64,000 bases of DNA from an uncultured Verrucomicrobiota bacterium (GTDB taxonomy: Bacteria > Verrucomicrobiota > Kiritimatiellia > CAIVKH01), in NCBI GenBank assembly GCA_937873455.1, contig CALMYG010000177.1, positions 60,118 to 124,117 of the forward strand, read 5' to 3'. Below, piece by piece: positions 7,207-31,084 of this stretch (its first letter is position 1; every line of letters starts with the position of its first letter). Made by a program: the position numbers and the translations under genes. Under the pieces are notes generated by a model. That model was not told where the DNA came from. It was given only the letters and a program-made list of their open reading frames with translations, and searched no databases.

Positions 7207-7865
7207 CGGGAGTCCGGTCGAATGATCATGCGTACAGGGGTAAGCCGCGGAGGTACAACGGAACGGTTGACGCCGAGACGTTCATCATCCGCTCCGGCTT
7301 CAGACTGGAGGTTGATTATGGCCCATGGATCCCAATAGGTGGCGATCAGGCTTTCCTCGGCACGGGCGAGAAAGTAACCGTCCTCCACCATGGAGCCGTT
7401 GAAAATCCATGCGCCATGTCGCGCCGGCCGTTGGGTTATGAAATCAAAAACGAAGCGTTCGGCGCGTTCCCTTACCGTCTGGCCATCCGCATCCCATTCA
7501 ACGTCCAGAATCAGCGAATCGCCGCGCGGCGGGCCTTCACCAAGACCCGCCATCGGTTCGCCGTGGGTAAATCCCAACAACAAAAGACCGGCATGAATAT
7601 CCGCGGGTTCGGCAAACAAGACAAATACACTTTCGTGGACTTTGCCGCCCGGCCCGCAAGCCAACAACTCAATGGCGCCTTCCACCTGATTGACATAACC
7701 GGACACCATCATCGCGCGATGGCCGGGATCAAGCTGCACGGAACCGAAGGTCGACCACGCATACGCAGGCGGCGCCACGGCTCGCGGCACATGCGCGCAT
7801 CCAACATGGAGCACTCCGACGGCCACGACGACGACCCACCCCACCCTCTTGATGAAACGCCGCAC
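7203..7865 (-). CDS. Hypothetical lipoprotein
   Basis: The signal peptide has a lipobox Cys (VAVGVLHVGC). It is ATGA-coupled to the next gene. Confidence 0.5.
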   Translation of the reverse strand: MRRFIKRVGWVVVVAVGVLHVGCAHVPRAVAPPAYAWSTFGSVQLDPGHRAMMVSGYVNQVEGAIELLACGPGGKVHESVFVLFAEPADIHAGLLLLGFTHGEPMAGLGEGPPRGDSLILDVEWDADGQTVRERAERFVFDFITQRPARHGAWIFNGSMVEDGYFLARAEESLIATYWDPWAIINLQSEAGADDERLGVNRSVVPPRLTPVRMIIRPDSR

Positions 7866-7871
7866 AATCCA

Positions 7872-8543
7872 TCACTCCAACAAGCTCATGACCACGGCTG
7901 CTTCCTGCATTTTTTGCAGTTGTTGCTGATAGGTGGCTATGGCTTCGGGACCTGCCTGCATCCGCGTCGCCAAATCAAGGCATTGCCGCATGGCGCGCAT
8001 GGCACGATCAAAGTTGCCGTTCAGGTAGTGAGCCTCGGCCAACGTGCTCCAAACATGGTAGCTGCCGGGAGCTATCAACACCGCATCCTGCGCAAGGGCC
8101 AGGGCACGGCGGGCATCCCGACGCTCCGGTTCGGTGGCCGTGGCCAGATACCACGCAAAATTGTTCAACACCTGAAAATTTTCCGGGTGATCGGCAAGCT
8201 GCTGCTCAAACAACATGGTTAATTCATCGTAGCGGCGTTGTTTGATCAACACCGAAGATAAAATTTGCTGGATGGGCAACACCTCAGGATGTTCCGCCAT
8301 CAAACCGCGCAACATCTTTTCAGCGGTATCGAAGTCCTCGCGCTGGAGCAATTCATTGACCTGATGCAGCCGTCCACGCGAGGCGACCGGCAAAACCGGC
8401 GTTGCGGTTTCATCAACCTGATCGGGCGGAAGGGCCGACTCCGCTTCGGGTGGCGGCGATGGGACTTCGGCTTCCGCCCAACCGGAAGGACACGACCACC
8501 ATGCGATGGCCAGCAGCATCAGGCAACGTATGGCCGATCTCAT
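7872..8543 (-). CDS. Secreted TPR-repeat protein
   Basis: It has a signal peptide (MRSAIRCLMLLAIAWWSC) and TPR-like repeats (NNFAWYLATA..., AEAHYLNGNFDRAMRAMRQCL). Its start overlaps the cdaR stop by 1 nt. Confidence 0.6.
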   Translation of the reverse strand: MRSAIRCLMLLAIAWWSCPSGWAEAEVPSPPPEAESALPPDQVDETATPVLPVASRGRLHQVNELLQREDFDTAEKMLRGLMAEHPEVLPIQQILSSVLIKQRRYDELTMLFEQQLADHPENFQVLNNFAWYLATATEPERRDARRALALAQDAVLIAPGSYHVWSTLAEAHYLNGNFDRAMRAMRQCLDLATRMQAGPEAIATYQQQLQKMQEAAVVMSLLE

Positions 8544-16915: not shown

Positions 16916-19900
16916 TCACAACTCCAACAGTTCTTGCACGTCTTCCCAGGACAACTTGTCCATGACCTGCTCGTCGTTTTCCAGCGTGGCGTCGATGATC
17001 GCCCGTTTGCGTTCCTGCATCGCCAACACTTTTTCCTCGATGGTGCCTTTGGTGATCAACTTGACGCTGTACACCGTACGTTTCTGCCCGATGCGGTAGG
17101 CCCGATCGGTGGCCTGGGCTTCCACGGCAGGATTCCACCAGGGGTCATAATGAATCACCATATCCGCGCCGGTAAGATTGAGGCCGGTCCCCCCGGCTTT
17201 CAGGCTGATCAGGAATACCGGAATGGCGCGGTTGGTGTTGAACGTATGCACCACGGCCATCCGGTCCTGGGTGCTGCCGTCGAGGTAACAATAGGCCGCG
17301 CCGCGCCGTTCCAATTCCTGCCGCAAAATGGTCAGCATCGAGACAAACTGACTGAACACCAATACCCGGTGACCGCCATCCATCGCCTCGTTGAGCAATT
17401 CCATGAACAGTTCCAGCTTGGCCGAAGGATTTTCCGCCGGCGGCGCCTCCTCCTTGAGCAAGGCCAGGTGGCAGCATACCTGGCGCAGACGCAGCAGGGT
17501 TTTGAGCACTTCCATACGCGAACGGTTGAATCCCTGTTCATTGACCAACTGGGTGAGGCGACGGCGGGAAGCATCCAACAATTTCCGGTAAACCGCCTGT
17601 TGATCACCCGACAGCGGACAATACGCCACCCGTTCGATTTTTGGCGGCAAGTCGGTGGCGACATCCCTCTTCAATCGCCGCAACAGAAACGGACTGAGCT
17701 TGCGCTTGAGTTTGGCCTGCGCGAACGCCGCTCCATCCTCGCCACGGGAAATCGGGAGTTCGTAGTTGCGACGGAATTTCTCGTGCCCGCCCAGATAACC
17801 CGGCATGAGAAAATCCATAATCGACCAGAAGTCCGAAACACCGTTTTCGATCGGTGTGCCGGTGAGGACAAGGCGATGGCGGGCCTGCAGGCGCTTGGCC
17901 GCCAGGGCGTTTTGCGTGGCTTTGTTTTTGATGTGCTGGGCTTCATCAAGAATCACCACGGAAAACGGTTGAGCGGCGTATTGTTCAATGTCGCGCCGTA
18001 ACAGGGCATAGGAAGTGATGATGACATCGTGTTCATGTAGCCCGGCCCATTTTTGGCGCCGGTCGCTTCCGGTGACGGTCAACACCCGGAGGTCCGGCGT
18101 AAACCGCGCCGCCTCCAAGGCCCAGTTATCGACCAGACTGGTCGGGCAAACAATCAAGGCGGGCAATTCACGGGCGGCTTCCTCCACCCGGTCCAGTTGA
18201 AGCCAGGCCAAGGTCTGCAAGGTTTTTCCAAGGCCCATTTCGTCAGCCAACACGCCGCCGTAGCCGCCCCGTTCGAGAAACCGCAGCCAGTTCAAGCCGT
18301 CGTATTGATAGGGTCGCAACGAGGCGTTCAACAAGGGGTGCGGCGCGACCGGTTCGAGGGTAATCTCACGGTTTTGCTTGCGCGCCGCCTCAAGCCATTC
18401 CGGCGTTACCTCGACATCAATGCCATCCAAGGCGTCGAGCGACGATTTGACATACGAGGCATAAATGGGAGGCAACCGGAACATACCCGGCTCGTCGCCT
18501 TCCCCGGAAGCGCAATCATCGAAGACATCCTGCATGGCCTCAATCGCCCCGGCGTCCAGCAAACAGGTGTGCGCGTCACGCTCCAGGAAGGCATCGCCCA
18601 TCCGCAAGGCGTGCTGAATTTCCTGGGCTGACCACTGCCCGCCCCGCGCGTCCTCGAATTGAAAGCCGACATCAAAACCATTCCCGCCGCGATCATGAAT
18701 TTTGACGACCGGGGCGATAAAATCAGCCTGCTCCATGAATTCGGCGACCGGGCCTTGCAGGTCCAATTTCCACCCCGCTCGCCTTAGCGCCGGCCATTCG
18801 CGTCCCAGAAAATTCATCACATCCCGGGTGCCGACGATCGGCGTCAGGTCATCCCCCACCACGCCGCGGAAGCCGGCGCGGCCGATACGTTCCAATCCTG
18901 CTTTCTCCGCGGACGGATTGCGCACGGTGAATCGAAACAGGTCTTCGGGATCCGGATGGGCGAAATGTCCCGCCGGGTCCGGCTTCGCGGCCACCATGCG
19001 CACGCCCTGGTAGTCGGCAACCAGCGTCGCGGCCAACGAAGCCGGGCTACCTCGAATCTCCAGCCGGAACCGGGGCGTTTCCGGTTCGACGGCAAACAAG
19101 TCGCGTTGCAGGTCGGTGGCGACCGCCATTTCTTTTTCGATCAGCGGTAATTCGATTTCAAAAAATCGCAATACGGCATCGCGGGCTATCCGCACCGGTC
19201 CGTTGTAAAGTTCCTGGAAGGGTCCGGGCAACACATGGTCCAGCGGCCAGAAATGTCCCGCGCCGAAGACCCAGCCCCGCTTGCCTTGAACGATATATAC
19301 CGGGCGCTCGCCTTGGCCGAGAAACGGCAACTCGGTATGCAAAACCAGAATCAGCTCCCCGGTGGTGCGGTGCAAATCCACCTGTAAGTTCGACTTCAGC
19401 GGCGTGCCGTTGACCTGGGCCTCCGCGCCATCGGGCAACTCAACGGTCCGCCCTTCGCGAACCTTCAGCACATTGGCAAAATCCTGGGCGTTGATGGTGA
19501 ATTGCTCCGGGACGGGACCCTCGAGAATGTCCTCCAACACATACATCAGGGCGTCGTCATCAGGACTTAATTTGACCGGGGTCGCTGGCGGACGGCGAAT
19601 GGAATGGCGGGCTCGCCCCTGGTCCAGCAGGGCGCGTAACGTGACTTCGCGCACCAGCGCCGATCCGTTCCATCCCGCGGACAATGCCAGAACCAACGCC
19701 ATGCGATCCAGCGATGATGCGCCAACCACGGTGCGCTGGAGATAAGCCGACTCATCCACCACCGCGACCCGGGCCGCCTTTACCGACTCCTCCTTCACCT
19801 TGACATCCCGGCGCGCCACTTCGGTTTCGTAACGTTTGGCCATTACCATGCCCAAGGCGATCACATGCGAGCAGACAATCCCCCGCTCGGTGGCATCACG

Positions 19901-20104
19901 ACAGGGGCACAAACTTTCGCACGTTCCGTCCGGCGAGACGTTGGCCCGGGTGGTCAGGGAGCGGTTGCCGAACGACAGCGTGCCTTCGAGGATCGGCGCG
20001 TCAAACCGAACCTCAAGCACCGCGCCACGCTCGTAAAGCAACTTGGCGTCGCGGTACACCGCTTCCCCGGCCCATTCCTTCAATAGTTTTTGCGTAAACT
20101 CCAT
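16916..20104 (-). CDS. SNF2-family helicase with an N-terminal SWIM zinc finger
   Basis: It has a SWIM-like CxC...CxH ([23 protein letters not shown]). The SNF2 ATPase motifs are [16 protein letters not shown] (I) and DEAQHIKN (II). Helicase-C motifs appear near the C-terminus ([23 protein letters not shown]...[11 protein letters not shown]). Confidence 0.9.
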   Translation of the reverse strand: [1062 protein letters not shown]

Positions 20105-20177: not shown

Positions 20178-21359
20178 TCACGCGGAAAGGATCGACGCCA
20201 ACCGGTCCAATACCCAGCGGTATTCCCAGGATAAACTTTCGGAAAGCCGGTTTTCGCCTACGCCTTCCGGCAGAACGGCGAACGTGTAGGTTTCAATTTC
20301 GAGATGGGGGCAACCGCCGGCGGTGATTTCCCGCCAGAACGATTCGTCCATATTCGAGCCGGTGGAATAGATGGGTGCGCTCCCCGCCCAGTGCAGCGGA
20401 ACATGAAAATGCGTGCGCGCTTCTTCCCAGTCCGGCGGATCATCGCATGCCGATATAGCGGCATCCAAATCGACAAAACGCCTCCACGCTCCCGGCGAAC
20501 CGACCACGGTTTGGTGCAGGTATACCGGCTCGATAAACTGCGCCCAGGCTTTCCGCCAGCCTGCTTCCGGGCGGACCGAAAGCGCGGCGCTGAGTTGCGT
20601 CTTGACCAGGGCGATTCCGTTTGCGCGCAAGGCGGCGATGGCCGAAGCCGGCGACTCATCAGCCAGCGCGCAATGACACGTATCCAAGCAAACCCCGACC
20701 CGACGACGGCGAACGCCTTCCTCCGAACCAGCGCCCCCGGCAAAGAATTCGCCGAGAAAGTCAATGGCATCCGCGGATGATTCCAACGCACACCACGGTT
20801 CCGGCTCGAGCCCCAAGCGTATTTCCGCGCCGGTTGACTCGGCCAGTTTATCCAGATGCCGGGCGACGTCTCCAAGATGCTGGCCCGCGCGTTGCCGAGC
20901 CGCGGCGCGATCACCGGCACGCGTATAATCCGGCGCGTACCAACCGGGAACGGTGCTGATACTCCCGACCATGCCGGAAGGCAACCATTTGCTCAAGACA
21001 TCAGCCAAGCCCATCGTGTAATCCCGGCGCCTCGGATCCGTCCAGTCGGGTCGATACACCGCGGATTTAACCGGCTGACCATGAAACGCGCCGAAAGGAA
21101 AACCATTGAGCGTGAAGACATAGAAGCCGTGGTCCCGGCACCAGACTCCAAAATCATCGGCTAACGTTCCGGATTGCAATTCCGCCAGCGCGCGCGCGCC
21201 GATGCGCAACCCCAAGCCGAAAGGTTCGGTGATCCCCAAACGGTCGCGCACCTCGGTGGCACATCCACGAACGGCCGTCCATTGGTCATGAAAACGTTCG
21301 CCGGCATGCACGTTGAGGCAATACGTCAGGTGCACGGGCGGCTGAACCGGCGCTCTCAT
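20178..21359 (-). CDS. Xylose-isomerase-like TIM-barrel protein (sugar-phosphate isomerase/epimerase family; EboE-like)
   Basis: It is ~393 aa with an Asp/Glu/His-rich TIM-barrel pattern (LGLEPEPW, CLDTCHCAL). It is ATGA-coupled to the upstream DHQS-like gene. The family assignment is by resemblance and has not been searched. Confidence 0.5.
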   Translation of the reverse strand: MRAPVQPPVHLTYCLNVHAGERFHDQWTAVRGCATEVRDRLGITEPFGLGLRIGARALAELQSGTLADDFGVWCRDHGFYVFTLNGFPFGAFHGQPVKSAVYRPDWTDPRRRDYTMGLADVLSKWLPSGMVGSISTVPGWYAPDYTRAGDRAAARQRAGQHLGDVARHLDKLAESTGAEIRLGLEPEPWCALESSADAIDFLGEFFAGGAGSEEGVRRRRVGVCLDTCHCALADESPASAIAALRANGIALVKTQLSAALSVRPEAGWRKAWAQFIEPVYLHQTVVGSPGAWRRFVDLDAAISACDDPPDWEEARTHFHVPLHWAGSAPIYSTGSNMDESFWREITAGGCPHLEIETYTFAVLPEGVGENRLSESLSWEYRWVLDRLASILSA

Positions 21360-22522
21360 AAGGCGAAAGCCCGCAAGGCCCCCAGCGCTTCCTCCATGAG
21401 CGCCTCATCAATTTCGCTGATCTCCATGCAATGGCCGACGCCCTGTGGCACGGTGATGCACAGGATACCGCCCAGATGTTCGCGAAATCGCTCCAGGCCA
21501 TTGAACAGGACCAGTCGCCCCCGGGGATCCCGCCGCTCCAGCGCTTCATGCCAGAGCGTAAACCCGGTCCGACGCAAGGCGAGGATGAGCCGGTGAGCGT
21601 CCGCCTCGGGCAACCACCCGCGACGCACGGCATACAGCGAGTCCAGCGCCACACCGATCGCCACCGCCGCGCCGTGGCCAACCTGATAACCGGTTTGCGC
21701 CTCCACGTGGTGCGCCGACCAATGCCCAAAATCCAACGGCCGCGCCCGACCCATCTCAAACGGGTCGCCACCCTCCCGGATATGGGTCAAATGCAATTCC
21801 GCGCAACGGACTACCAGGCGCTCCATCGCAGCCGCATCACGTGCCGCCAACGTGTCAGCCTCCCGGTCAAGCCAATCGAAGAAGGCCGTGTCCTTGATCA
21901 TCGCCACTTTGAACGCTTCGGCGATACCGGCGCGCCATTCGGCATCCGGAAGGCTGGCGAGAAAGTTCAAATCATTGAGAACGGCAAACGGCGGCGCAAA
22001 GGTGCCGAGAAGGTTTTTCCCGCACGGATCGTTGATGGCGGTTTTCACCCCGACCCCGCCGTCGTTCTGGGAAAGCACGGTGGTGGGCAACCGGATCATC
22101 CGGACCCCCCGATGCAGCAGCGAAGCGGCAAAACCCACCGCATCCAGAACCGCCCCGCCGCCGATCGCCATGACAAACGAATGGCGGTCCAGCGATGCCT
22201 CGGCCATCCCGCGGATCAGTTCGTCGATGCGCGCCCGATCCGACTTCAACGCCTCACCACCCCGAATCCCCCGGGGCGAGCCGACCAGATCAATGTTTGG
22301 AGCAACGGCCCGGAGGTAACATGCCAAGCGGTAGAGCAATGCCGGATGCGCCTCGGAAACCGCATCTTCCACGATCACCAACATGCGCGGATGGGGATGG
22401 CGGGCCACCTCCGGAGCAAGAATTTCCGCCAGTGCCGCATTTTCAGGGGCGAAAACGTCGCGGGTGAACACCACCGGATAGCGGTAGCGAACGGTTATAT
22501 CCTGTACGATGCGATGGGTCAT
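21356..22522 (-). CDS. 3-dehydroquinate synthase-like sugar-phosphate cyclase superfamily protein
   Basis: AIGGGAVLDAVGFAAS is the Gly-rich NAD-binding motif. ...LPTTVLSQNDGGVG... and a His-rich C-terminal metal site (HWSAHHVEAQ...HGAAVA) match DHQS-like enzymes. Confidence 0.7.
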   Translation of the reverse strand: MTHRIVQDITVRYRYPVVFTRDVFAPENAALAEILAPEVARHPHPRMLVIVEDAVSEAHPALLYRLACYLRAVAPNIDLVGSPRGIRGGEALKSDRARIDELIRGMAEASLDRHSFVMAIGGGAVLDAVGFAASLLHRGVRMIRLPTTVLSQNDGGVGVKTAINDPCGKNLLGTFAPPFAVLNDLNFLASLPDAEWRAGIAEAFKVAMIKDTAFFDWLDREADTLAARDAAAMERLVVRCAELHLTHIREGGDPFEMGRARPLDFGHWSAHHVEAQTGYQVGHGAAVAIGVALDSLYAVRRGWLPEADAHRLILALRRTGFTLWHEALERRDPRGRLVLFNGLERFREHLGGILCITVPQGVGHCMEISEIDEALMEEALGALRAFAL

Positions 22523-22660
22523 GGCATTGACGGAAAAATGTAGCTCACCCAGCGCGATCCCACAACTTCACTTTGCGACCGAGACAGGACCATTTTTTCT
22601 ATCGTGTTGTTAAGCCGTTGTGTTAGCTTTTCGTTTAACACCAAAAAACGCGGGGAAATT

Positions 22661-23839
22661 ATGAAAGTCGTCTTGATTGTTTTGGACTCCGTCGGCATCG
22701 GCCATGCGCCGGATGCCTCCGCATACGGCGACGAAGGCGCCGCCACCCTCCCTCATATCGGCGAAGCGGTCGGCGGTCTTGTCCTTCCGACCCTTCAAGC
22801 CCTTGGCCTGGGCAACATTCCCGCCCTGATCCCGGGATCTCCGGCCATACCCGGCATCGCCCCACATCGCCAACCACTCGCCCATTACGGGGTGATGATC
22901 GAAAAGTCCCAGGGCAAGGACACGGTCACCGGCCACTGGGAAATCGTGGGGCTGGAACTGATTCCCGGCTTTCACCTGTTTCCGCCGGGACCACCCTCGT
23001 TTCCTGATGAATTGGTCCGGCAGTTCGAAGAACGCACCGGGCGGGGCATTCTCGGAAACAAAGCGGCCAGCGGCACCGGGATCATCGATGCGTGCGGCGC
23101 GCAACACATGCAAGAGAAGAAATGGATCGTCTATACCAGCGCCGACAGCGTATTCCAGATCGCCGCGCACGAGGAAGTCATCCCGCTGCCCGAATTGTAC
23201 CGGGCCTGCGAAATCGCCCGGGAGCTTTGTGATGCCTACCGGGTCGGGCGGGTCATCGCACGCCCCTTCATCGGACAGCCGGGCGCATTTCAACGCACGG
23301 AAAACCGGCGCGATTACGCGTTTAAACCATCTGAACCAACCGTACTGGAAAAATTGACCGCCGCCGGTCATGCCGTGTACGCCGTCGGGAAAATCGAAGA
23401 CATTGTCGCCCACCGGGGCATCACCGAATCCAACCACACCGGCAACAACCGCGACTCGCAAAAAGCGGTCGAAGCGTTCATGAAGAAGCCGGGCGACGGC
23501 CTGATCTTCGCCAACTTCATCGATTTCGACATGATCTATGGCCACCGCCGCGACCCGCAAGGGTACGCCGACAGCTTAAAACAAACCGACGATTGGCTCG
23601 CCGGGTTTATTCCCACCTTGGCTCAAGACGACGTCCTGATCCTGACCGCTGATCACGGCAACGACCCGACCTGGAAAGGTACCGATCATACCCGGGAGAC
23701 CGTTCCCCTGCTGCTGTACCGCCCCGGACAGACCGGAATATCCCTCGGGGTTCGCAACGGTTATTACGATGTCGCCCAGTCCATCGCCACGCTTTTTGGA
23801 ATTGATCCCATGACGCGGGGCGTGTCATTTATTTCATAA
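22661..23839 (+). CDS. deoB: Phosphopentomutase
   Basis: MKVVLIVLDSVGIGHAPDA...GDEG at the N-terminus and a C-terminal ...ILTADHGNDPT... match the metalloenzyme-superfamily DeoB. The start was assigned to the ATG at 22661 with an upstream GGGGA. Confidence 0.9.
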   Translation: MKVVLIVLDSVGIGHAPDASAYGDEGAATLPHIGEAVGGLVLPTLQALGLGNIPALIPGSPAIPGIAPHRQPLAHYGVMIEKSQGKDTVTGHWEIVGLELIPGFHLFPPGPPSFPDELVRQFEERTGRGILGNKAASGTGIIDACGAQHMQEKKWIVYTSADSVFQIAAHEEVIPLPELYRACEIARELCDAYRVGRVIARPFIGQPGAFQRTENRRDYAFKPSEPTVLEKLTAAGHAVYAVGKIEDIVAHRGITESNHTGNNRDSQKAVEAFMKKPGDGLIFANFIDFDMIYGHRRDPQGYADSLKQTDDWLAGFIPTLAQDDVLILTADHGNDPTWKGTDHTRETVPLLLYRPGQTGISLGVRNGYYDVAQSIATLFGIDPMTRGVSFIS

Positions 23840-23853
23840 CGAAGGAGTCCCCT

Positions 23854-25158
23854 ATGTTGCCGCAATGGATCATCGAAAAGAAACGCGACGGGAAAGCCCT
23901 GAGCGAAGAAGAAATCCGTTTTTTTATCCGGGGTTACACCGATGGAACCCTTCCCGATTATCAAATGTCCGCCCTGGCCATGGCGATTTACTTTCAGGGC
24001 ATGACCCCGGAAGAGGTTTCCGTGCTGGTCGATGCGATGATGCGCTCCGGCGATCTCGTCGACACCTCCTCCATTCCGCTGCCCAAGGCGGACAAACATT
24101 CGACCGGCGGCATCGGCGACAAGGTCTCCCTGGTGCTGGCCCCCCTGGTCGCTTGTTTTGATGTCGCCGTTCCCATGATTTCCGGGCGCGGCCTCGGCAT
24201 CACTGGCGGCACCCTGGACAAACTGGAATCCATACCCGGCTATCAAGCCAAGATCGCGGAATCCCACTTTATTGATGTCATCAAGCAATGCGGTTGCTCC
24301 ATCATCGGCCAAACCGACCGCCTCGCCCCCGCGGACAAAAAGTTGTACGCGTTGCGGGATGTCACCGCGACGGTGCCCTCCATCCCCCTCATCACCGCCA
24401 GCATCATGTGCAAAAAAATGGCCGAAGGCATCGACGCCCTCGTTCTGGATGTCAAATGCGGCTCCGGCGCCTTTATGAAAACCCGCGATGATGCGCGCGC
24501 GCTCGCTCAAAGCATGATCAACGTCGGCAAGGCGATGAACAAAAAAGTCTCGGCGATCGTGACCGACATGAACCAACCGCTCGGCAAAACCGCCGGCAAT
24601 GCGCTTGAGGTGATCGAGTCGGTCGAAACCTTGCGCGGAGAAGGACCAGCGGATTTAGTCGATCTTACCGTCGTGTTCGCGGCGGAAATGATCGGCCTGG
24701 TCCACCCCGTGTCCGATCCGGCGGCGCTCGACCGGCAACTGCGTGAAAAGCTGGTAAACGGCGAGGCGCTCGCCCGCTTTCGCGAGATGGTACGCCTGCA
24801 ACACGGCGATGTCGGAGCCATCGACGATCTTTCCCGGCTGCCCAAAGCCCGGATTGTCCGCCCCTTCCCCGCGCCGCGCGGCGGTTTCGTGTCCAAAGTT
24901 CACGCCGAAACCATCGGCCGCGCGTGCATCGTGCTCGGTGCGGGACGTAAAAAGACCGAAGATCCGGTCGATTTCGCGGTCGGGGTATCCCACCTGGTCA
25001 AGATCGGCGACCGCATCGAAGCCGGCGCGCCGCTGCTGATGATTCACGCCAACGACGAAGCCAAGCTGAATGAGGCGGAACGTATGCTGGCCGAAGCTTT
25101 TAACATATCGGATGCGCCGGTTCCCCCGTCACCCGCCGTATTGGAGCGACTGGCGTAG
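23854..25158 (+). CDS. deoA: Thymidine/pyrimidine-nucleoside phosphorylase
   Basis: Family motifs include ...KKRDGKALSEEEI..., ...DKHSTGGIGDKVSL... and SGRGLGITGGTLDKLESIPG. It is ~434 aa. Confidence 0.9.
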   Translation: MLPQWIIEKKRDGKALSEEEIRFFIRGYTDGTLPDYQMSALAMAIYFQGMTPEEVSVLVDAMMRSGDLVDTSSIPLPKADKHSTGGIGDKVSLVLAPLVACFDVAVPMISGRGLGITGGTLDKLESIPGYQAKIAESHFIDVIKQCGCSIIGQTDRLAPADKKLYALRDVTATVPSIPLITASIMCKKMAEGIDALVLDVKCGSGAFMKTRDDARALAQSMINVGKAMNKKVSAIVTDMNQPLGKTAGNALEVIESVETLRGEGPADLVDLTVVFAAEMIGLVHPVSDPAALDRQLREKLVNGEALARFREMVRLQHGDVGAIDDLSRLPKARIVRPFPAPRGGFVSKVHAETIGRACIVLGAGRKKTEDPVDFAVGVSHLVKIGDRIEAGAPLLMIHANDEAKLNEAERMLAEAFNISDAPVPPSPAVLERLA

Positions 25159-25214
25159 TACAACCCGAAGGACCGCACGAGACGTGATGCGTTCCCGTAA
25201 CCAAGGAAACAACA

Positions 25215-26042
25215 ATGAACATGGAAATTCTGGATAAAGCCCTTGCCGTGGTGCGCGAGCGGCTCGGCAACCCGCAACCTACGGCCGGCTTGATCCTCGG
25301 CTCCGGATGGGGCGATGTACTGGAATCGTTTGAGATCGAGAAGACCCTGCCGTATGAGGAAATTCCCGGACTGGGCAAGACCGGCGTGGTCGGCCATTCC
25401 GGCCGGCTGATCCTCGCCCGGGGCGCGGGTATTTCCACCCTGATCTTCCAGGGTCGGCGTCATTATTACGAGGGCGAAGGCTGGACCCCGGTGGCGCTTC
25501 CGGTCTACGTCCTCAAACAACTGGGCGTATCCTGGGTGCTGCTCACCAACGCGGCCGGCGGCGTGCGCGCCGACCTGACCCCGGGAAGCCTGATGGTGCT
25601 GTCTGATCACGTCAACAACATGGGAACCAATCCCCTGATCGGCCCGCACCACCCGGCCTGGGGGCCGCGCTTCCCCGACCTGTCCCACGCCTACGACGCT
25701 CCCATGCGGTCCGCGCTCGCGCGGGCCGGCGCCGCCGCCGGGCTCAACGTCTCCGAAGGCGTCTACCTCGCCTCCACCGGACCCTTTTACGAAACGCCCG
25801 CGGAAATTCGCGCATACCGCACCCTCGGCGCGGACGCGGTCGGCATGTCCACCGTGCCGGAAACGTTGCTGGCCAACGCGGCCGGGTTGCGGGTCGCCGG
25901 TCTTTCCTGCATCACCAACAGCGCGGCGGGCATCAGCGCCCACCCGCTCAGCCACGAAGAAGTCACGGAAACCTCCCGGCAAACCATGCCCAAGATGAAG
26001 GCCATGATCGCCGGCTTCTGGAAGGAAATGGCCCATGCATGA
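25215..26042 (+). CDS. punA: Purine nucleoside phosphorylase (PNP/MTAP family)
   Basis: It is ~275 aa with LILGSGWG, ...HSGRLILARG... and ...GMSTVPE... motifs. Its end overlaps cdd by 8 nt. Confidence 0.85.
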   Translation: MNMEILDKALAVVRERLGNPQPTAGLILGSGWGDVLESFEIEKTLPYEEIPGLGKTGVVGHSGRLILARGAGISTLIFQGRRHYYEGEGWTPVALPVYVLKQLGVSWVLLTNAAGGVRADLTPGSLMVLSDHVNNMGTNPLIGPHHPAWGPRFPDLSHAYDAPMRSALARAGAAAGLNVSEGVYLASTGPFYETPAEIRAYRTLGADAVGMSTVPETLLANAAGLRVAGLSCITNSAAGISAHPLSHEEVTETSRQTMPKMKAMIAGFWKEMAHA

Positions 26043-26439
26043 GATGGCGGAAAAAATGATCGAAGCGGCAATTGAAGTCGCCGCCCGCGCCTACGCCCCC
26101 TACTCCAAGTTTCATGTCGGCGCAGCCTTGTTGACCCATGACGGCGAAATCATCGTCGGCTGCAATGTGGAAAACGCCTCCTACGGGCTCACCATTTGCG
26201 CTGAGCGCAATGCCATCTTCGCCGCGGTGGCCCGGAACATCCGGACCTTCCGCGCAGTGGCCATTGTCGCCGATGGCGAGGTCATGCCGTTTCCCTGCGG
26301 CGCCTGCCGCCAGGTCTTGAGCGAATTTTGCGGGCCGGCCACCCCGGTTTATGTCGCATCGATCAGCAAGCCTGGCGAAATCAAGGCGCTGACCATGGGC
26401 GAGCTGCTCCCGCATGCCTTCGCCTTCGGGGATGAGTGA
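26035..26439 (+). CDS. cdd: Cytidine deaminase
   Basis: The zinc-binding motifs CAERNA and PCGACRQ are present. It is ~134 aa, matching the homotetrameric type. Confidence 0.85.
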   Translation: MHEMAEKMIEAAIEVAARAYAPYSKFHVGAALLTHDGEIIVGCNVENASYGLTICAERNAIFAAVARNIRTFRAVAIVADGEVMPFPCGACRQVLSEFCGPATPVYVASISKPGEIKALTMGELLPHAFAFGDE

Positions 26440-27152
26440 AAACCAAGCTTAAACTCGAAATCGCTCCCCAACCCGACAACACCACCTGCGGGCCGACCTG
26501 CCTGCATGCGGTCTACCGTTATTATGGCGATGGCATTCCCTTGCCCGATGTCGTGCGGGAGGTCCCCTCGTTAAAAACCGGCGGCACGCTCGGCGTCATG
26601 CTTGCCGGCCATGCCTTGCGCCGGGGCTATCGCGCCACCATCTACTCGTACAACCTGAAGTTATTTGATCCGACCTGGTTCTCCTTGCCTTCGGAGGAAA
26701 TCTGCCGTCGCCTGAAGCGTCAGGCGCGTTTTAAAAAGCGGGAAAAACTGCAAAAGGCGACCCGCGCCTACATCGACTTCCTCGAACTGGGCGGGCGGTT
26801 AAAAACCCTGGACCTCAATGCCCGATTGCTCCGGAAATACCTCAACCGCAATATCCCGATCCTCACCGGGCTCAGCTCCACCTATCTTTACCAGACCGCC
26901 CGCGAATACGGCCCGCACGATGTCGATGACGACCTGCGCGGCCACCCCGCCGGCCATTTCGTGGTTCTGCGCGGCTACGACCGCCGGCGCAAAACCGTCT
27001 TTATCGCCGACCCGCTGGAAAGCAACCCCTACTCCGCCGACCATCAATACCAACTCGGCATCGACCGCGTCATCTGCGCCATCCTGCTCGGGATCGTCAC
27101 CGACGACGCCAACTTAATCATTTTGGAACCCCCCAAAACCACCAACCCCTAA
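26436..27152 (+). CDS. Peptidase C39-like (papain-fold) domain protein
   Basis: Q-x6-CGPTCLHAV matches the C39 Gln/Cys active-site block. A later HPAGHFVVLRGYD supplies the His. The GTG start overlaps the cdd stop (GTGA). Confidence 0.55.
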   Translation: MKTKLKLEIAPQPDNTTCGPTCLHAVYRYYGDGIPLPDVVREVPSLKTGGTLGVMLAGHALRRGYRATIYSYNLKLFDPTWFSLPSEEICRRLKRQARFKKREKLQKATRAYIDFLELGGRLKTLDLNARLLRKYLNRNIPILTGLSSTYLYQTAREYGPHDVDDDLRGHPAGHFVVLRGYDRRRKTVFIADPLESNPYSADHQYQLGIDRVICAILLGIVTDDANLIILEPPKTTNP

Positions 27153-27159
27153 CCCCGTC

Positions 27160-28629
27160 ATGTATATTCTCGTTGTTGTCGACAACCCCAAGTACTGGCC
27201 GCTCAACATTCAAAACGTCGAAGTCGTCCAGGCCCGCAAATACATCACCGAGCCGGCCTTCACCCGCATTGGAGATGCCCGGGTGTTCAACCTCTGCCGC
27301 TCCTACCGTTACCAAAGCACCGGATATTACGTGTCGTTGCTGGCCGCCGCCCGCGGCCACAAGCCGATCCCCGATGTCTCCACCATTCGCGACCTGCAAT
27401 TTCCGACCATCGTCCGGCTCGCCTCGGAAACCCTCGAAGAGGAAATGGATCGCGCGCTTGCCGACCATAAAGGCAACCGCTTCACCTTGAGCATTTATTT
27501 CGGGCGCAACCTTGCCAAGCGCTATGACCGGTTGAGCATGGAACTGTTCAACCTGTTCCGCGCTCCCTTGCTCCGCGCCGAATTCGTGAAAGAGGAAGGC
27601 AAGTGGCAACTACAGGGCATCGGCCCGATCGCCGTCAGCGAAGTACCGGAAAGCCACCACGCCTTTATTGTCATTGTCGCCTCGGACTTTTTCCGCGGAC
27701 GCCACCGCCGGCTCCGCCCGCGCGCCCAAGCCGCGTATTCAATGGCCATCCTGACCAATCCCAAGGACGAAGGCGCGCCGTCCAACCCCCGCGCCCTGGA
27801 AAAATTCATCGAAGCAGCGGAAAAAATCGGAATCGACGCCGAGCTGATCGACCGCGACGCCTACAGCCGCCTTCCCGAATACGACGCCCTGTTCATCCGT
27901 GAAACCACGTCGGTCACCAATCATACCTTCCGTTTCGCGCGCCGCGCCGAGGCGGAGGGCCTGGTCGTGATCGACGACCCGCAATCCATCCTCAAGTGCA
28001 CCAACAAGGTGTACCTTGAAGAACTGCTTACCCGGCATCGCATTCCCACCCCCAAATCCATCATTGTTCACCGCGACAACCTCGACCTCCTGCCCTATGA
28101 AATCGGGTTCCCGCTCATTCTCAAGCAACCCGACTCCTCCTACTCCGTCGGCGTCATCAAGATCGACAACAAGGAGCAACTCGAACGGGAAGCCCCGCCG
28201 ATGCTGGAGGATTCCGAACTGCTGATCGCCCAGGAATTCCTGCCCACCGAATTCGACTGGCGCATCGGGGTGATCGACGGCAAACCCTTTTATGCCTGCA
28301 AGTACTACATGGCCCGCAAGCACTGGCAGATCGTCCGCCGGGAAAAACAGACCGTGATGGAAGGCCGCGTCCAAGCCATTGCCCTGCGCAATGTGCCCGA
28401 CAAAGTCATTGATGTCGCGGTCAAGGCCTCCCGCCTGATCGGCGACGGACTCTACGGCATCGACCTCAAGCAGATCGGCAACAAGCTCTATGTGATCGAA
28501 ATCAACGACAACCCCAACCTCGATGCCGGCTTCGAAGATGCCGTCGTCAAAAACCGGCTGTACGAAACGGTCATGAAAAGTTTTCTCCGCCGGATCAAGG
28601 CGGCCAAGCAATTGCGGAAATCCCGATGA
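27160..28629 (+). CDS. RimK-family ATP-grasp ligase (alpha-L-glutamate ligase-like) with a ~200-aa N-terminal extension
   Basis: The C-terminal ~280 aa are ATP-grasp: ...FPLILKQPDSSYSVGV..., ...LIAQEFLPTEFDWRIGVIDGK..., ...GLYGIDLKQIGNKLYVIEINDNPN.... The N-terminal domain is of a pre-ATP-grasp type. Confidence 0.8.
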   Translation: MYILVVVDNPKYWPLNIQNVEVVQARKYITEPAFTRIGDARVFNLCRSYRYQSTGYYVSLLAAARGHKPIPDVSTIRDLQFPTIVRLASETLEEEMDRALADHKGNRFTLSIYFGRNLAKRYDRLSMELFNLFRAPLLRAEFVKEEGKWQLQGIGPIAVSEVPESHHAFIVIVASDFFRGRHRRLRPRAQAAYSMAILTNPKDEGAPSNPRALEKFIEAAEKIGIDAELIDRDAYSRLPEYDALFIRETTSVTNHTFRFARRAEAEGLVVIDDPQSILKCTNKVYLEELLTRHRIPTPKSIIVHRDNLDLLPYEIGFPLILKQPDSSYSVGVIKIDNKEQLEREAPPMLEDSELLIAQEFLPTEFDWRIGVIDGKPFYACKYYMARKHWQIVRREKQTVMEGRVQAIALRNVPDKVIDVAVKASRLIGDGLYGIDLKQIGNKLYVIEINDNPNLDAGFEDAVVKNRLYETVMKSFLRRIKAAKQLRKSR

Positions 28630-29855
28630 ACCGGCGGCGGCATTTGTTCGAGGCTTTTGGCGTCGAATTGGAATACATGCTCGTTCACCGGGACAGCCTG
28701 GAGATTGTTCCCGAGGTGGACCAGTTGTTCCGGGATGCCGCCGGCAGCTTCGTTTCTGATTACGAGGACGGACCGATCTCCTGGTCCAACGAATTGGTCC
28801 GCCACGTCATGGAAGTCAAAGTCAGCGAGCCTGTGGCCTCGTTCGCCGGACTGTCCGATGTCTTTCAACGCAGCCTGGATCGCATCCAGACATTGGCCGC
28901 GGCGCGCAACACCTGCCTGATGCCCACCGCCATGCACCCGTGGATGGATCCCGCCCGCGAGACCGAACTCTGGCCGCACGATTATGCCGAGGTATACCGG
29001 ACCTTTGACCGCATTTTTGACTGCCGGCGGCACGGCTGGGCCAACCTCCAATCCGTACACCTGAACCTGCCGTTTTGCGGCGACGAGGAATTCGCCCGCC
29101 TCCACGCGGCCATTCGCCTCGTACTGCCCTTGTTGCCGGGCTTGGCCGCCGCCTCCCCGATCATGGAGGGCCGCATCACCGGGCATCTCGACAGTCGGCT
29201 GGATGTCTACGTCAACAACAGCCGGGTCATTCCCCACATCACCGGTGATATCATTCCCGAACCGGTTTTCAGTCGGGATGCCTACGTGGACGCCATTCTC
29301 CAACCCATGTACACGGCCATCGCGCCCTACGACCCGGAAGGCATGCTGCAAGACGAATTTCTCAATGCGCGCGGCGCTATCGCCCGATTCGACCGCAACG
29401 CCATCGAAATCCGGCTGCTCGACGTCCAGGAATGTCCCGCCGCCGACCTCGCCATCGTGCAGGCCGTCGTCCATGCGGTGCGCCGTCAGGTGGAAGAAAC
29501 CTGGACGCCCCTCGACACCCAGAAGCAGTGGTCCTCCGCGCGCTTAAAAGCCATACTGCTCGCCCATATCCGGGATGCCGATGATACCATCATTTCCGAC
29601 CGCGAGTTTCTCGCTGCGTGGGGCTACGCCGGCGTCACCACCACGTCGCGCGACCTCTGGCGTCATATCCTCAACGACGTTTCGATCCCCGATGCCGAAC
29701 CGGCCCGCGCACTTGAGCTGATCCTCCGCGAAGGTGTGTTGGCCCGACGCATGCTCAGAAGGCTTCATGGCAGCATGGATCGCCCGGCCATCGCCGGCTT
29801 GTACCGGGAGCTCATGGAGGCGCTGCGTATCGGGCGCCCCTGGAGCCCGGCATGA
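28626..29855 (+). CDS. Carboxylate-amine ligase of the GCS2 family (YbdK-like glutamate-cysteine-ligase fold)
   Basis: MNRRRHLFEAFGVELEYMLVHRD is the hallmark GCS2 N-terminus (GxExEY). Further along it reads ...HLNLPF.... Its start overlaps the ATP-grasp stop by 4 nt. Confidence 0.8.
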   Translation: MNRRRHLFEAFGVELEYMLVHRDSLEIVPEVDQLFRDAAGSFVSDYEDGPISWSNELVRHVMEVKVSEPVASFAGLSDVFQRSLDRIQTLAAARNTCLMPTAMHPWMDPARETELWPHDYAEVYRTFDRIFDCRRHGWANLQSVHLNLPFCGDEEFARLHAAIRLVLPLLPGLAAASPIMEGRITGHLDSRLDVYVNNSRVIPHITGDIIPEPVFSRDAYVDAILQPMYTAIAPYDPEGMLQDEFLNARGAIARFDRNAIEIRLLDVQECPAADLAIVQAVVHAVRRQVEETWTPLDTQKQWSSARLKAILLAHIRDADDTIISDREFLAAWGYAGVTTTSRDLWRHILNDVSIPDAEPARALELILREGVLARRMLRRLHGSMDRPAIAGLYRELMEALRIGRPWSPA

Positions 29856-30601
29856 TACGCCCCGCTCCCGGCCTCGTATTAACCTGTGAACATGCGGGGA
29901 ACTGCGTCCCCCCCGCCTACCGCCACGTATTTCCGTCGCATCGCGCCCTGCTCACCTCGCATCGCGGGTGGGACCCCGGCATCTATCCGGTCGCCCTCGC
30001 GGTCAGCCGGGCCTTGCGTGTCCCGCTGAAGGCGCACTTTGTCACACGCTTGCTGGTCGAAACCAACCGCTCGCTGACGCATCCCGATCTCTTCTCGAAA
30101 ATAACCCGGTCGTTGCCAGCCGACGAAAAACAACGTGTCCTCGAACGGTATTACCACCCGCACCGCGCACGGGTGGTTGCCCTGCTCCAGCGGGTCATCG
30201 ACGCCGGACACCCCGCCCTCCACCTCGGATTTCACTCCTTCACGCCGGTATGGAATGGCGCTGTGCGCACGGTGGACATCGGCCTGCTCTACGATCCGGC
30301 CCGCCCCGGCGAGCGCTCCTATTGCTTCGTGCTCAAGCGCCTGCTGGAACGCACCCATCCCGAGTGGCGCATTCGCATGAACCGGCCCTACCGTGGAACC
30401 AGCGATGGCCTCACCACCGCATTACGGAAACGCTGGCCGGACCGGTCCTACCGAGGCATCGAAATCGAAATCAACCAAGCCCTGCTGGGCCGGGCCCGCG
30501 ACCGCACCCGCATCGCCCGATCGCTCGCCCAGTGCCTGATCGCCGCATCGACCGAGGGCGAAAATCAAGCCGCTTTGCCTCGGGGAAAAAGACACTACTG
30601 A
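29852..30601 (+). CDS. N-formylglutamate amidohydrolase-family protein (zinc carboxypeptidase-like fold)
   Basis: LVLTCEHAGNCVP is the FGase-family CEHA/G motif. The protein also has ...HSFTP... and is ~249 aa. It is ATGA-coupled to the GCS2 gene. Confidence 0.7.
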   Translation: MIRPAPGLVLTCEHAGNCVPPAYRHVFPSHRALLTSHRGWDPGIYPVALAVSRALRVPLKAHFVTRLLVETNRSLTHPDLFSKITRSLPADEKQRVLERYYHPHRARVVALLQRVIDAGHPALHLGFHSFTPVWNGAVRTVDIGLLYDPARPGERSYCFVLKRLLERTHPEWRIRMNRPYRGTSDGLTTALRKRWPDRSYRGIEIEINQALLGRARDRTRIARSLAQCLIAASTEGENQAALPRGKRHY

Positions 30602-30661: not shown

Positions 30662-31084
30662 TCAGGGCGGGGAAGCCTGCCCGCAAAGCGCATGGAAACC
30701 TTTCACGTTCCGTAGTTGTTTGGCCAACAGCAGTTCACACGCTATTACCACGACGATAATGACAAGCACGTTCAACGCCGGGGTATGTAACCCTCGCGGA
30801 TTGACCACGTAGTTTCCAAAAAGCACATAGAGCGGAGTATAGAGTACCACGATCATCGCAATGCGCGTGGCTGTCACATTGCCCAACAGTGAAAGAAGAA
30901 GAGCGGCAGCCAGGATCAGGTTTGTACCACTCCACAAAAGTGATGCGGGATGATAGTCATAGTGGCCAACGTTGCCTTCTCGCAGGCTTGCGTCGAAGTA
31001 GTCGCGGAAGTGTGTGATGGAATGCGGCACAAGCGCGCAGACGGCAACAAGAAGTACAATCATCAAAACACGCGTTAGTTTCAC
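30662..31084 (-). CDS. Small integral membrane protein (4 TM)
   Basis: It has four hydrophobic helices and sits in a lower-GC region. I recognise no motifs. Confidence 0.45.
   Translation of the reverse strand: MKLTRVLMIVLLVAVCALVPHSITHFRDYFDASLREGNVGHYDYHPASLLWSGTNLILAAALLLSLLGNVTATRIAMIVVLYTPLYVLFGNYVVNPRGLHTPALNVLVIIVVVIACELLLAKQLRNVKGFHALCGQASPP

Follow-up and report, generated by a model that had tools for sequence, protein, structure and literature searches.

A four-gene cassette at the end of a nucleoside-catabolism operon

We analysed a window of 64,000 nt from contig CALMYG010000177.1, which belongs to the metagenome-assembled genome of an uncultured Verrucomicrobiota bacterium (Kiritimatiellia; CAIVKH01; GCA_937873455.1). 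Between 22.6 and 30.6 kb of the window, eight closely packed open reading frames (ORFs) follow one another on the + strand. The first four are the nucleoside-catabolism genes deoB-deoA-punA-cdd. The other four form the cassette described here and encode a C39-like hydrolase, a ligase that joins an RLAN domain to a RimK-type ATP-grasp module (RLAN-RimK), a GCS2-type ligase and an FGase-like protein (Table 1). At 100% identity, the ligase matches an NCBI entry named 'RimK family protein' from a Kiritimatiellia MAG, and the C39-like protein matches a 'hypothetical protein' from the same taxon.

Table 1. Coordinates and assignments of the cassette genes, the domains of the ligase and the preceding operon
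Feature	Position	Strand	Remarks
C39-like papain-fold cysteine hydrolase	26436-27152	+	238 aa, stand-alone, GTG start
RLAN-RimK ligase gene, whole	27160-28629	+	489 aa
RLAN domain of the ligase	27160..27700	+	residues 1 to ~180; modelled degenerate ATP-grasp-like fold
RimK-type ATP-grasp catalytic module (pre-ATP-grasp, central and C-terminal domains)	27730..28629	+	same 489-aa ligase
GCS2/YbdK-superfamily carboxylate-amine ligase	28626-29855	+	409 aa
FGase-superfamily amidohydrolase-like protein	29852-30601	+	249 aa; optional fourth gene
deoB-deoA-punA-cdd nucleoside-catabolism genes	22604..26439	+	context, outside the conserved module
deoB, phosphopentomutase		+	NCBIfam 508.8 vs cut-off 256
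deoA, thymidine/pyrimidine-nucleoside phosphorylase		+	NCBIfam 566.8 vs cut-off 269
punA, purine-nucleoside phosphorylase		+	NCBIfam 324.5 vs cut-off 218
cdd, cytidine deaminase		+	NCBIfam 148.6 vs cut-off 74

The cassette genes are translationally coupled. Read directly, the junction between cdd and the C39-like gene is a GTGA with a 4-nt overlap, in which the TGA stop of cdd (26437-26439) shares bases with the GTG start of the C39-like gene (26436-26438). This GTG start is supported because homologues begin at the same MKTKL position. A gap of 7 nt separates the C39-like gene from RLAN-RimK, and the two following junctions, RLAN-RimK/GCS2 (28626-28629) and GCS2/FGase (29852-29855), both consist of an ATGA. 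Counted from deoB into the cassette, the spacing comprises gaps of 14 and 56 nt and overlaps of 8 nt and 4 nt. An earlier sequence-only reading of the window had placed the four ORFs at these coordinates, had called the last three translationally coupled, with overlaps at 28626/28629 and 29852/29855, and had noted the GTGA between cdd and the first gene, all of which held when the junctions were read base by base.

No terminator-like hairpin was found on the + strand inside the eight-gene array, the junction between cdd and the cassette included, and the tightly packed cassette genes of the window leave no room for a small ORF between them. None of the four cassette proteins has a hydrophobic N-terminus or signal peptide, and the module therefore appears to be cytoplasmic. 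Downstream, a 140-aa ORF on the - strand (30662-31084) without Pfam match converges on the cassette, with 60 nt between its stop and that of the FGase-like gene. A terminator-like site was not found in this 60-nt gap. The cassette does not differ from its flanks in G+C content (0.60-0.61), flanking repeats are absent and there are no Rfam matches. On these grounds, a mobile element or a recent transfer in the Kiritimatiellia genome was dropped as an explanation.

The gene order recurs across bacterial phyla

Scanning one genome per species yielded at least 536 relatives of the ligase; neighbourhoods were counted in the best 80 loci. The eight window proteins were compared with these 80 loci by tblastn (1e-5), and the denominators are the loci with enough flank. 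We relied on tblastn because crude ORF calling sometimes took antisense ORFs (clusters 4 and 5). The 80 loci span at least 14 phyla, with carriers among the Verrucomicrobiota, Gamma- and Alphaproteobacteria, Desulfobacterota, Nitrospirota, Bacteroidota, Balneolales, Planctomycetota, Hydrogenedentes, Chlamydiota, Tectomicrobia, Acidobacteriota, Ignavibacteriae, Myxococcota and Bdellovibrionales. Desulfuromonas versatilis, Nitrosomonas communis and Marivirga aurantiaca are examples of cultured carriers.

RLAN-RimK is immediately preceded by the C39-like gene in 66/78 loci and immediately followed by GCS2 in 65/71. The gene after GCS2 is FGase-like in at least 37/58 loci, a lower bound, as the divergent FGase of L077 (10759-11565, after GCS2) was missed by tblastn and found by Pfam. 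The start-stop overlap between RimK and GCS2 is seen again in other phyla, and the order is permuted in two loci (L034 and L059), where the C39-like gene comes after FGase. Because the same order recurs in most of the 80 independent genomes, the arrangement is far from chance. Linkage across genomes, as expected in the sequence-only reading, is thus borne out, and its four-gene cassette persists in modified form: the core is C39-like, RLAN-RimK and GCS2, and FGase is optional.

When all ORFs of the 80 loci were clustered, no conserved fifth gene appeared and no further family was common to more than seven loci, so the module is self-contained. A replacement hydrolase downstream of GCS2 was not found in the FGase-less loci, which have only unrelated genes at this place, bar the divergent FGase of L077. 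At 90% identity, at least 8,000 RLAN-RimK clusters and more than 7,600 C39-like clusters were recovered. Across phyla, both proteins retain ~55-60% identity (~60% for the C39-like protein).

Some loci carry the ligase in other company. In L065 and L074 (both Gallionella), in L057 and in L079 (labelled only Pseudomonadota), it has neither a C39-like nor a GCS2 neighbour. In L065 (7135-8004) and L074 (445-1173), a 240-290-aa ORF without Pfam match precedes the ligase and overlaps its start; this ORF could be a replacement partner.

RLAN-RimK is predicted to pair an inactive with an active ATP-grasp module

In Pfam, the ligase matches RLAN with 164.1 bits (threshold 25) and the RimK ATP-grasp family with 37.8 bits (21). 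The RLAN domain covers residues 25-170 and is followed by a normal pre-ATP-grasp domain from residue ~195-213. Of the earlier description as a RimK ATP-grasp with a ~200-aa pre-ATP-grasp N-domain, the RimK type was correct, and the N-domain is RLAN.

The C-terminal 300 residues align with RimK of E. coli and P. aeruginosa, with K283, K322, R368, D435, E447, N449 and R247 conserved. The ATP-binding lysines K283 and K322 and the Mg-binding D435, E447 and N449 are invariant in the ligase and match the RimK motifs. In RimK of P. aeruginosa, R189, N262, R64 and S68 contact the terminal glutamates of bound poly-glutamate (PMC10092738). Their counterparts in the cassette ligase are R368, N449, R247 and T250/S251. 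All NCBIfam scores of the ligase stay under the respective cut-offs, both for its best matches, LysX (78.9 vs 275.6) and rimK_fam TIGR00768 (74.2 vs 143.4), for the RimK equivalog NF007764 (27 vs 331), and for the GshB equivalogs NF003573 (18.3 vs 272) and TIGR01380 (18 vs 299). The ligase represents a distinct subfamily, which probably attaches an amino acid, likely glutamate, to an acceptor with an acidic carboxylate.

The retention of RimK-type catalytic and poly-glutamate-contacting residues poses the question whether the cassette modifies the C-terminus of a protein or peptide, much as RimK and RimB do. Here, RLAN-RimK would put a glutamate tail on a housekeeping protein encoded elsewhere (e.g. 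S6), and RLAN could be the module that recognises the target. The C39-like protein would trim or remove the tail, GCS2 would form a second (isopeptide) bond and the FGase-like protein would clip terminal residues. The very high conservation across phyla is in line with such a role. The scores of the ligase against the RimK equivalog and rimK_fam, far under their cut-offs, argue against it, as does the gene content: no candidate gene for a target or tag is conserved beside the cassette, and in the window no small ORF fits between its genes. The S6 gene rpsF is absent from the 64-kb window. We regard modification of a protein as possible but rather unlikely, and return to it with each of the other enzymes.

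The RLAN domain itself shows no sequence similarity to the catalytic ATP-grasp half of the same protein (hhalign probability 1.3%). A duplication of the catalytic ATP-grasp that is detectable in sequence was dropped on the basis of this value, and likeness at the level of the fold is what stands. RLAN contains no invariant lysine. It is therefore read as a degenerate ATP-grasp-like module that, judging from its modelled fold, is probably non-catalytic, and the ligase as a whole would be a dead-plus-live ATP-grasp tandem. The description of the family reportedly goes no further than an uncharacterised alpha+beta domain.

A search of 1.84 billion representative proteins with the RLAN profile returned 967 clusters only, in which the ~490-aa architecture dominates. 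A minority consists of GNAT-RLAN-RimK fusions of 636-663 aa (P0306, P0385 and P0386; loci L088-L091), whose loci are without C39, GCS2 and FGase. In L091, a SET-domain gene follows the GNAT-RLAN-RimK gene after 12 nt, and in L088 the fusion gene adjoins a gene for a CitMHS/DcuC-type carboxylate transporter. Ngg (N-acetylglutaminylglutamine synthetase) was considered as a characterised relative of these fusions and dropped, with 33 bits vs 569 for TIGR03103. Stand-alone RLAN-RimK proteins (42-45% identity) without C39 or GCS2 neighbours occur on the P. aeruginosa plasmid pZYPA1927 (L086, 5905-7494) and on p1 of Azospirillum brasilense Sp7 (L087). The P. aeruginosa gene sits between SDR and aminotransferase genes, near ggt and a Glu/Asp ABC transporter operon.

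The second ligase and the optional amidohydrolase

The GCS2 protein reaches 77 bits in Pfam (threshold 21) and remains under the NCBIfam subfamily cut-offs for YbdK, its best match there (TIGR02050, 45 vs 176), and cyanobacterial/plant GshA (TIGR02048, 31.5 vs 249). E14, E16, E63, H136, Q142, R249, R254, E261, R263 and D266 are invariant. The profile aligns its GIELE (G-x-E-x-E) and RvlD (R-x-x-D) motifs, together with E63, with YbdK (1r8g) and plant GCL, and a phmmer search of the protein against the PDB gave no match. PafA, a distant relative of the GCS2 ligases, forms an isopeptide bond. A role of this kind would suit the modification of a protein, against which it speaks that the cassette protein has no Pup_ligase match in Pfam.

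The FGase-like protein scores 76.1 bits in Pfam (threshold 28.9) and has no NCBIfam match. Its profile finds Atu2144 (2odf) at 3e-37 over the full length and 2q7s, deposited as N-formylglutamate amidohydrolase, at 4e-3. Atu2144 is thus its closest solved relative and is also of unknown function. E13, H14, H37, R38, D41, H124, H128, E204 and E206 are invariant. There are no hut genes in the cassette neighbourhoods, and neither similarity nor context marks the protein as HutG-type.

With these two, all four family assignments made in the sequence-only reading lie above the Pfam gathering thresholds in the profile searches. The gamma-glutamyl-type chemistry that had been attached to them is suggested by family membership only.

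The C39-like protein is predicted to be an intact papain-clan enzyme

The first cassette protein matches Peptidase_C39_2 with 40.7 bits (threshold 24) and Peptidase_C39 with 26.5 bits (22). Q12, C18, H174 and D192 are invariant in its homologues, which gives the papain-like fold a Gln oxyanion residue and the Cys-His-Asp triad that characterise the C39-like clan. The family named earlier was thus right, and the motif is Q-x5-C (Q12...C18), not Q-x6-C as had been read. In the AlphaFold model (pLDDT 85.5), a helical insertion of ~60-80 residues is located at residues ~79-136. The nearest structural relatives of the model are double-glycine leader peptidases and UFM1/ATG4-type proteases. Against the PA2778-family equivalog, the protein scores 15 bits with a cut-off of 150.

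The kinship with leader peptidases, together with the occurrence of ATP-grasp enzymes that cyclise ribosomally synthesised and post-translationally modified peptides (RiPPs) among the distant fold matches of RLAN, would fit a RiPP or bacteriocin maturation locus. In such a locus, a C39 leader peptidase and a graspetide-like ATP-grasp macrocyclase would act on a ribosomal precursor. The 80 loci do not bear this out: no ABC-exporter fusion, transporter or double-glycine precursor gene for the C39-like protein is conserved in them, and neither is a precursor ORF, an ABC transporter or an immunity gene. Moreover, the ATP-grasp is of the RimK/LysX type by sequence, the proteins carry no signal peptide or transporter fusion, and PADLOC gives no match. 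We rejected the RiPP locus, for want of a precursor and a transporter, as extremely improbable. An anti-phage defence system was likewise rejected, as none of the four proteins has a PADLOC match. From its sequence, we classify the C39-like protein as a catalytically intact papain/C39-clan enzyme that is not a bacteriocin-processing peptidase.

The same structural relatives bear on the modification of a protein. The fold is nearest to peptide-processing proteases, with UFM1/ATG4 proteases among the matches, and in the 66/78 loci with an upstream C39-like gene a protease is tightly coupled to a ligase, as RimB is to RimK.

The link to the deo operon is confined to one sub-lineage

The window copy of the cassette adjoins deoB-deoA-punA-cdd. 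Co-transcription from deoB into the cassette is likely in this genome because of the 4-nt overlap between cdd and the C39-like gene and because no terminator is found. The mechanical ORF of deoB starts at a GTG at 22604; homology sets in only from residue 20, and an ATG at 22662 fits the 393-aa products of relatives. The real start is therefore probably ATG 22662, which would place the promoter of the operon in the divergent intergenic region 22523-22661.

A functional tie to nucleoside catabolism would mean that a product of the deo/cdd enzymes, derived from a nucleobase, ribose or ammonia, is conjugated or detoxified by the cassette. Apart from the likely co-transcription here, its attraction lies in the fact that L084/L085 and L002, two further genomes of the Kiritimatiellia type, show deo-RimK adjacency too. 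The wider survey points the other way. By tblastn, cdd is found in the cassette flank in 1/67 broad-scan loci, and this locus is L002, a close relative. Among 11 close-relative contexts (ligase identity at least 75%), three have deo adjacency. Only in this window does it come with all four cassette genes. In L084/L085, it follows a 145-nt spacer (L084 6856-7000) and the cassette is shrunk to RimK-GCS2, with C39-like absent. In L002, it follows a spacer of ~190 nt (7817-8000) and RimK alone is left, with C39-like and GCS2 absent. The spacers of L084 and L002 are non-coding and occupy the place of the C39-like gene, which looks like a stepwise decay of the cassette. The other eight contexts (L001, L003, L081, L083, L092, L093, L094 and L095) are without deo adjacency and vary in cassette content; the unrelated neighbours in such relatives include genes for a DEAD helicase, HSP70 and haem synthesis.

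The tight overlap of cdd with the C39-like gene occurs only in this window among the loci examined. As the deo link is not conserved, the adjacency is to be read as local synteny or operon fusion in one sub-lineage and not as a property of the system, and it carries no functional inference. We consider a functional tie very unlikely. The earlier suggestion of such a tie is not supported by these counts, two of the three adjacent contexts being without C39-like. Co-transcription with the nucleoside genes, also suggested there, remains plausible for this genome, with its overlap and without a terminator-like site.

Two further features precede the operon. Divergent from it, overlapping genes at 20178-22522 (- strand) encode a TIM-barrel protein of the xylose-isomerase-like kind and a 3-dehydroquinate-synthase-like protein. 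Instead of AroB of the shikimate pathway, this may be a sugar-phosphate cyclase pair. A 1062-aa SNF2-family helicase is encoded at 16916-20104 (- strand), and its first ~590 residues have no Pfam match.

A small glutamate-containing product is tentatively favoured

The explanation that we find best, and put forward tentatively, is that the cassette works as a self-contained module in the cytoplasm, where it would assemble and trim a short amide-linked product that contains glutamate, most likely a small peptide-like metabolite. As part of this explanation, and with the same reserve, the cassette would have spread across bacteria as a unit, by inheritance or transfer. The GCS2-type ligase may convert a carboxylate, by family analogy the gamma-carboxyl of glutamate, into an acyl-phosphate and join it to an amine. 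RLAN-RimK would activate the terminal carboxylate of this intermediate, or of another acidic acceptor, and add an alpha-linked amino acid, probably L-glutamate. Two ligases of this kind in succession would follow the same fold logic as GshA and GshB in glutathione synthesis. The Cys-His-Asp enzyme of the C39-like family may then cleave or transpeptidate the product or limit its length, and the optional FGase-like amidohydrolase may remove or recycle an N-acyl-glutamate-type end. The position behind the deo operon in this Kiritimatiellia genome would result from a lineage-specific fusion with no general functional meaning. Substrates, step order, gamma or alpha regiochemistry and the choice between a small molecule and a protein are inferred. 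The explanation draws on the family assignments, the recurring gene order, the invariant catalytic residues and the counterparts of the glutamate-contacting residues of RimK.

A small metabolite is weakly favoured over a protein tail for three reasons. Characterised GCS2 and FGase enzymes (GshA/EgtA and HutG) act on free amino acids or small molecules, which also speaks against the modification of a protein. GNAT-RLAN-RimK fusions exist and, since they lack C39, GCS2 and FGase, suggest that the N-acylating partner is interchangeable. Finally, no target gene is linked to the cassette.

Several observations weigh against a small metabolite. An NCBIfam equivalog cut-off is not attained by any of the four proteins. 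In structure, the C39-like protein is nearest to proteases with peptide or protein substrates, and the best-studied pair of a protease and RimK, RimB-RimK, acts on ribosomal protein S6. The cross-phylum identity of the ligase and the C39-like protein fits a macromolecular target at least as well. The SET-domain gene behind one GNAT-RLAN-RimK gene hints at protein modification and counts in its favour. Some close relatives keep only RimK or RimK-GCS2, so the parts can work apart.

With less confidence than we place in the small glutamate-containing product, we also consider that the cassette makes an undescribed class of product in at least 14 phyla. This doubtful but broader possibility covers a glutathione-like or oligo-glutamyl metabolite as well as an enzymatic peptide tag on a housekeeping protein, and the RLAN pseudo-ATP-grasp would be the half of a tandem ATP-grasp enzyme that selects the substrate or has a regulatory role.

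Whatever the product, thousands of clusters, a strict gene order and intact catalytic motifs in the C39-like protein and both ligases point to a widespread amide-bond biochemistry to which no product is assigned. The comparative data define a minimal set that can be tested, namely C39-like, RLAN-RimK and GCS2, with FGase optional; no partner gene has to be added, and the deo operon can be left aside. Structural work may be guided by the fold of RLAN, which suggests that the ligase couples an inactive to an active ATP-grasp module.

Comparison with known systems

The double-glycine bacteriocin peptidase domains of the C39 family (ComA, PCAT1, AMS/PCAT) differ from the cassette protein in their setting. 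The latter stands alone without an attached ABC transporter, contains a helical insertion and has no double-glycine precursor nearby.

In glutathione synthesis (GshA and GshB, with turnover of the phytochelatin-synthase type), a GS-like ligase is followed by an ATP-grasp ligase, which is the same pairing of folds as in the cassette. The scores are far apart, however, with 15-45 bits vs 249-427 for gshA and 18 vs 272 for gshB.

The system for glutamylation of S6 in Pseudomonas and E. coli, RimK-RimB (and RimA), likewise places an ATP-grasp enzyme of the alpha-L-glutamate-ligase type beside a protease, and the residues that contact ATP/Mg and the terminal glutamate are kept in the cassette ligase. 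In contrast to RimB, which is retropepsin-like, the cassette protease has a papain/C39 fold. The cassette ligase possesses the extra RLAN domain and scores far under the RimK cut-offs, and the cassette comprises a GCS2 ligase and an FGase-like enzyme in addition.

Full-text literature searches found no experimental work on the cassette, and no close solved structure was found for its proteins, in agreement with the earlier statement that no product had been characterised. A neighbourhood of RLAN-RimK, a COOH-NH2 ligase, a papain-like peptidase and FGase was reportedly predicted by comparative genomics by Iyer, Abhiman, Burroughs and Aravind in 2009 (Mol Biosyst 5:1636), the study behind the Pfam family RLAN (PF14401). 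The window copy shares with that predicted neighbourhood the four families, their linkage and the lack of a known product, and nothing essential differs except that the window copy is fused to the deo operon. The cassette of the window is thus a typical member of a widespread, computationally predicted and biochemically orphan system, and its only peculiarity, the fusion to the deo operon, appears to be incidental.

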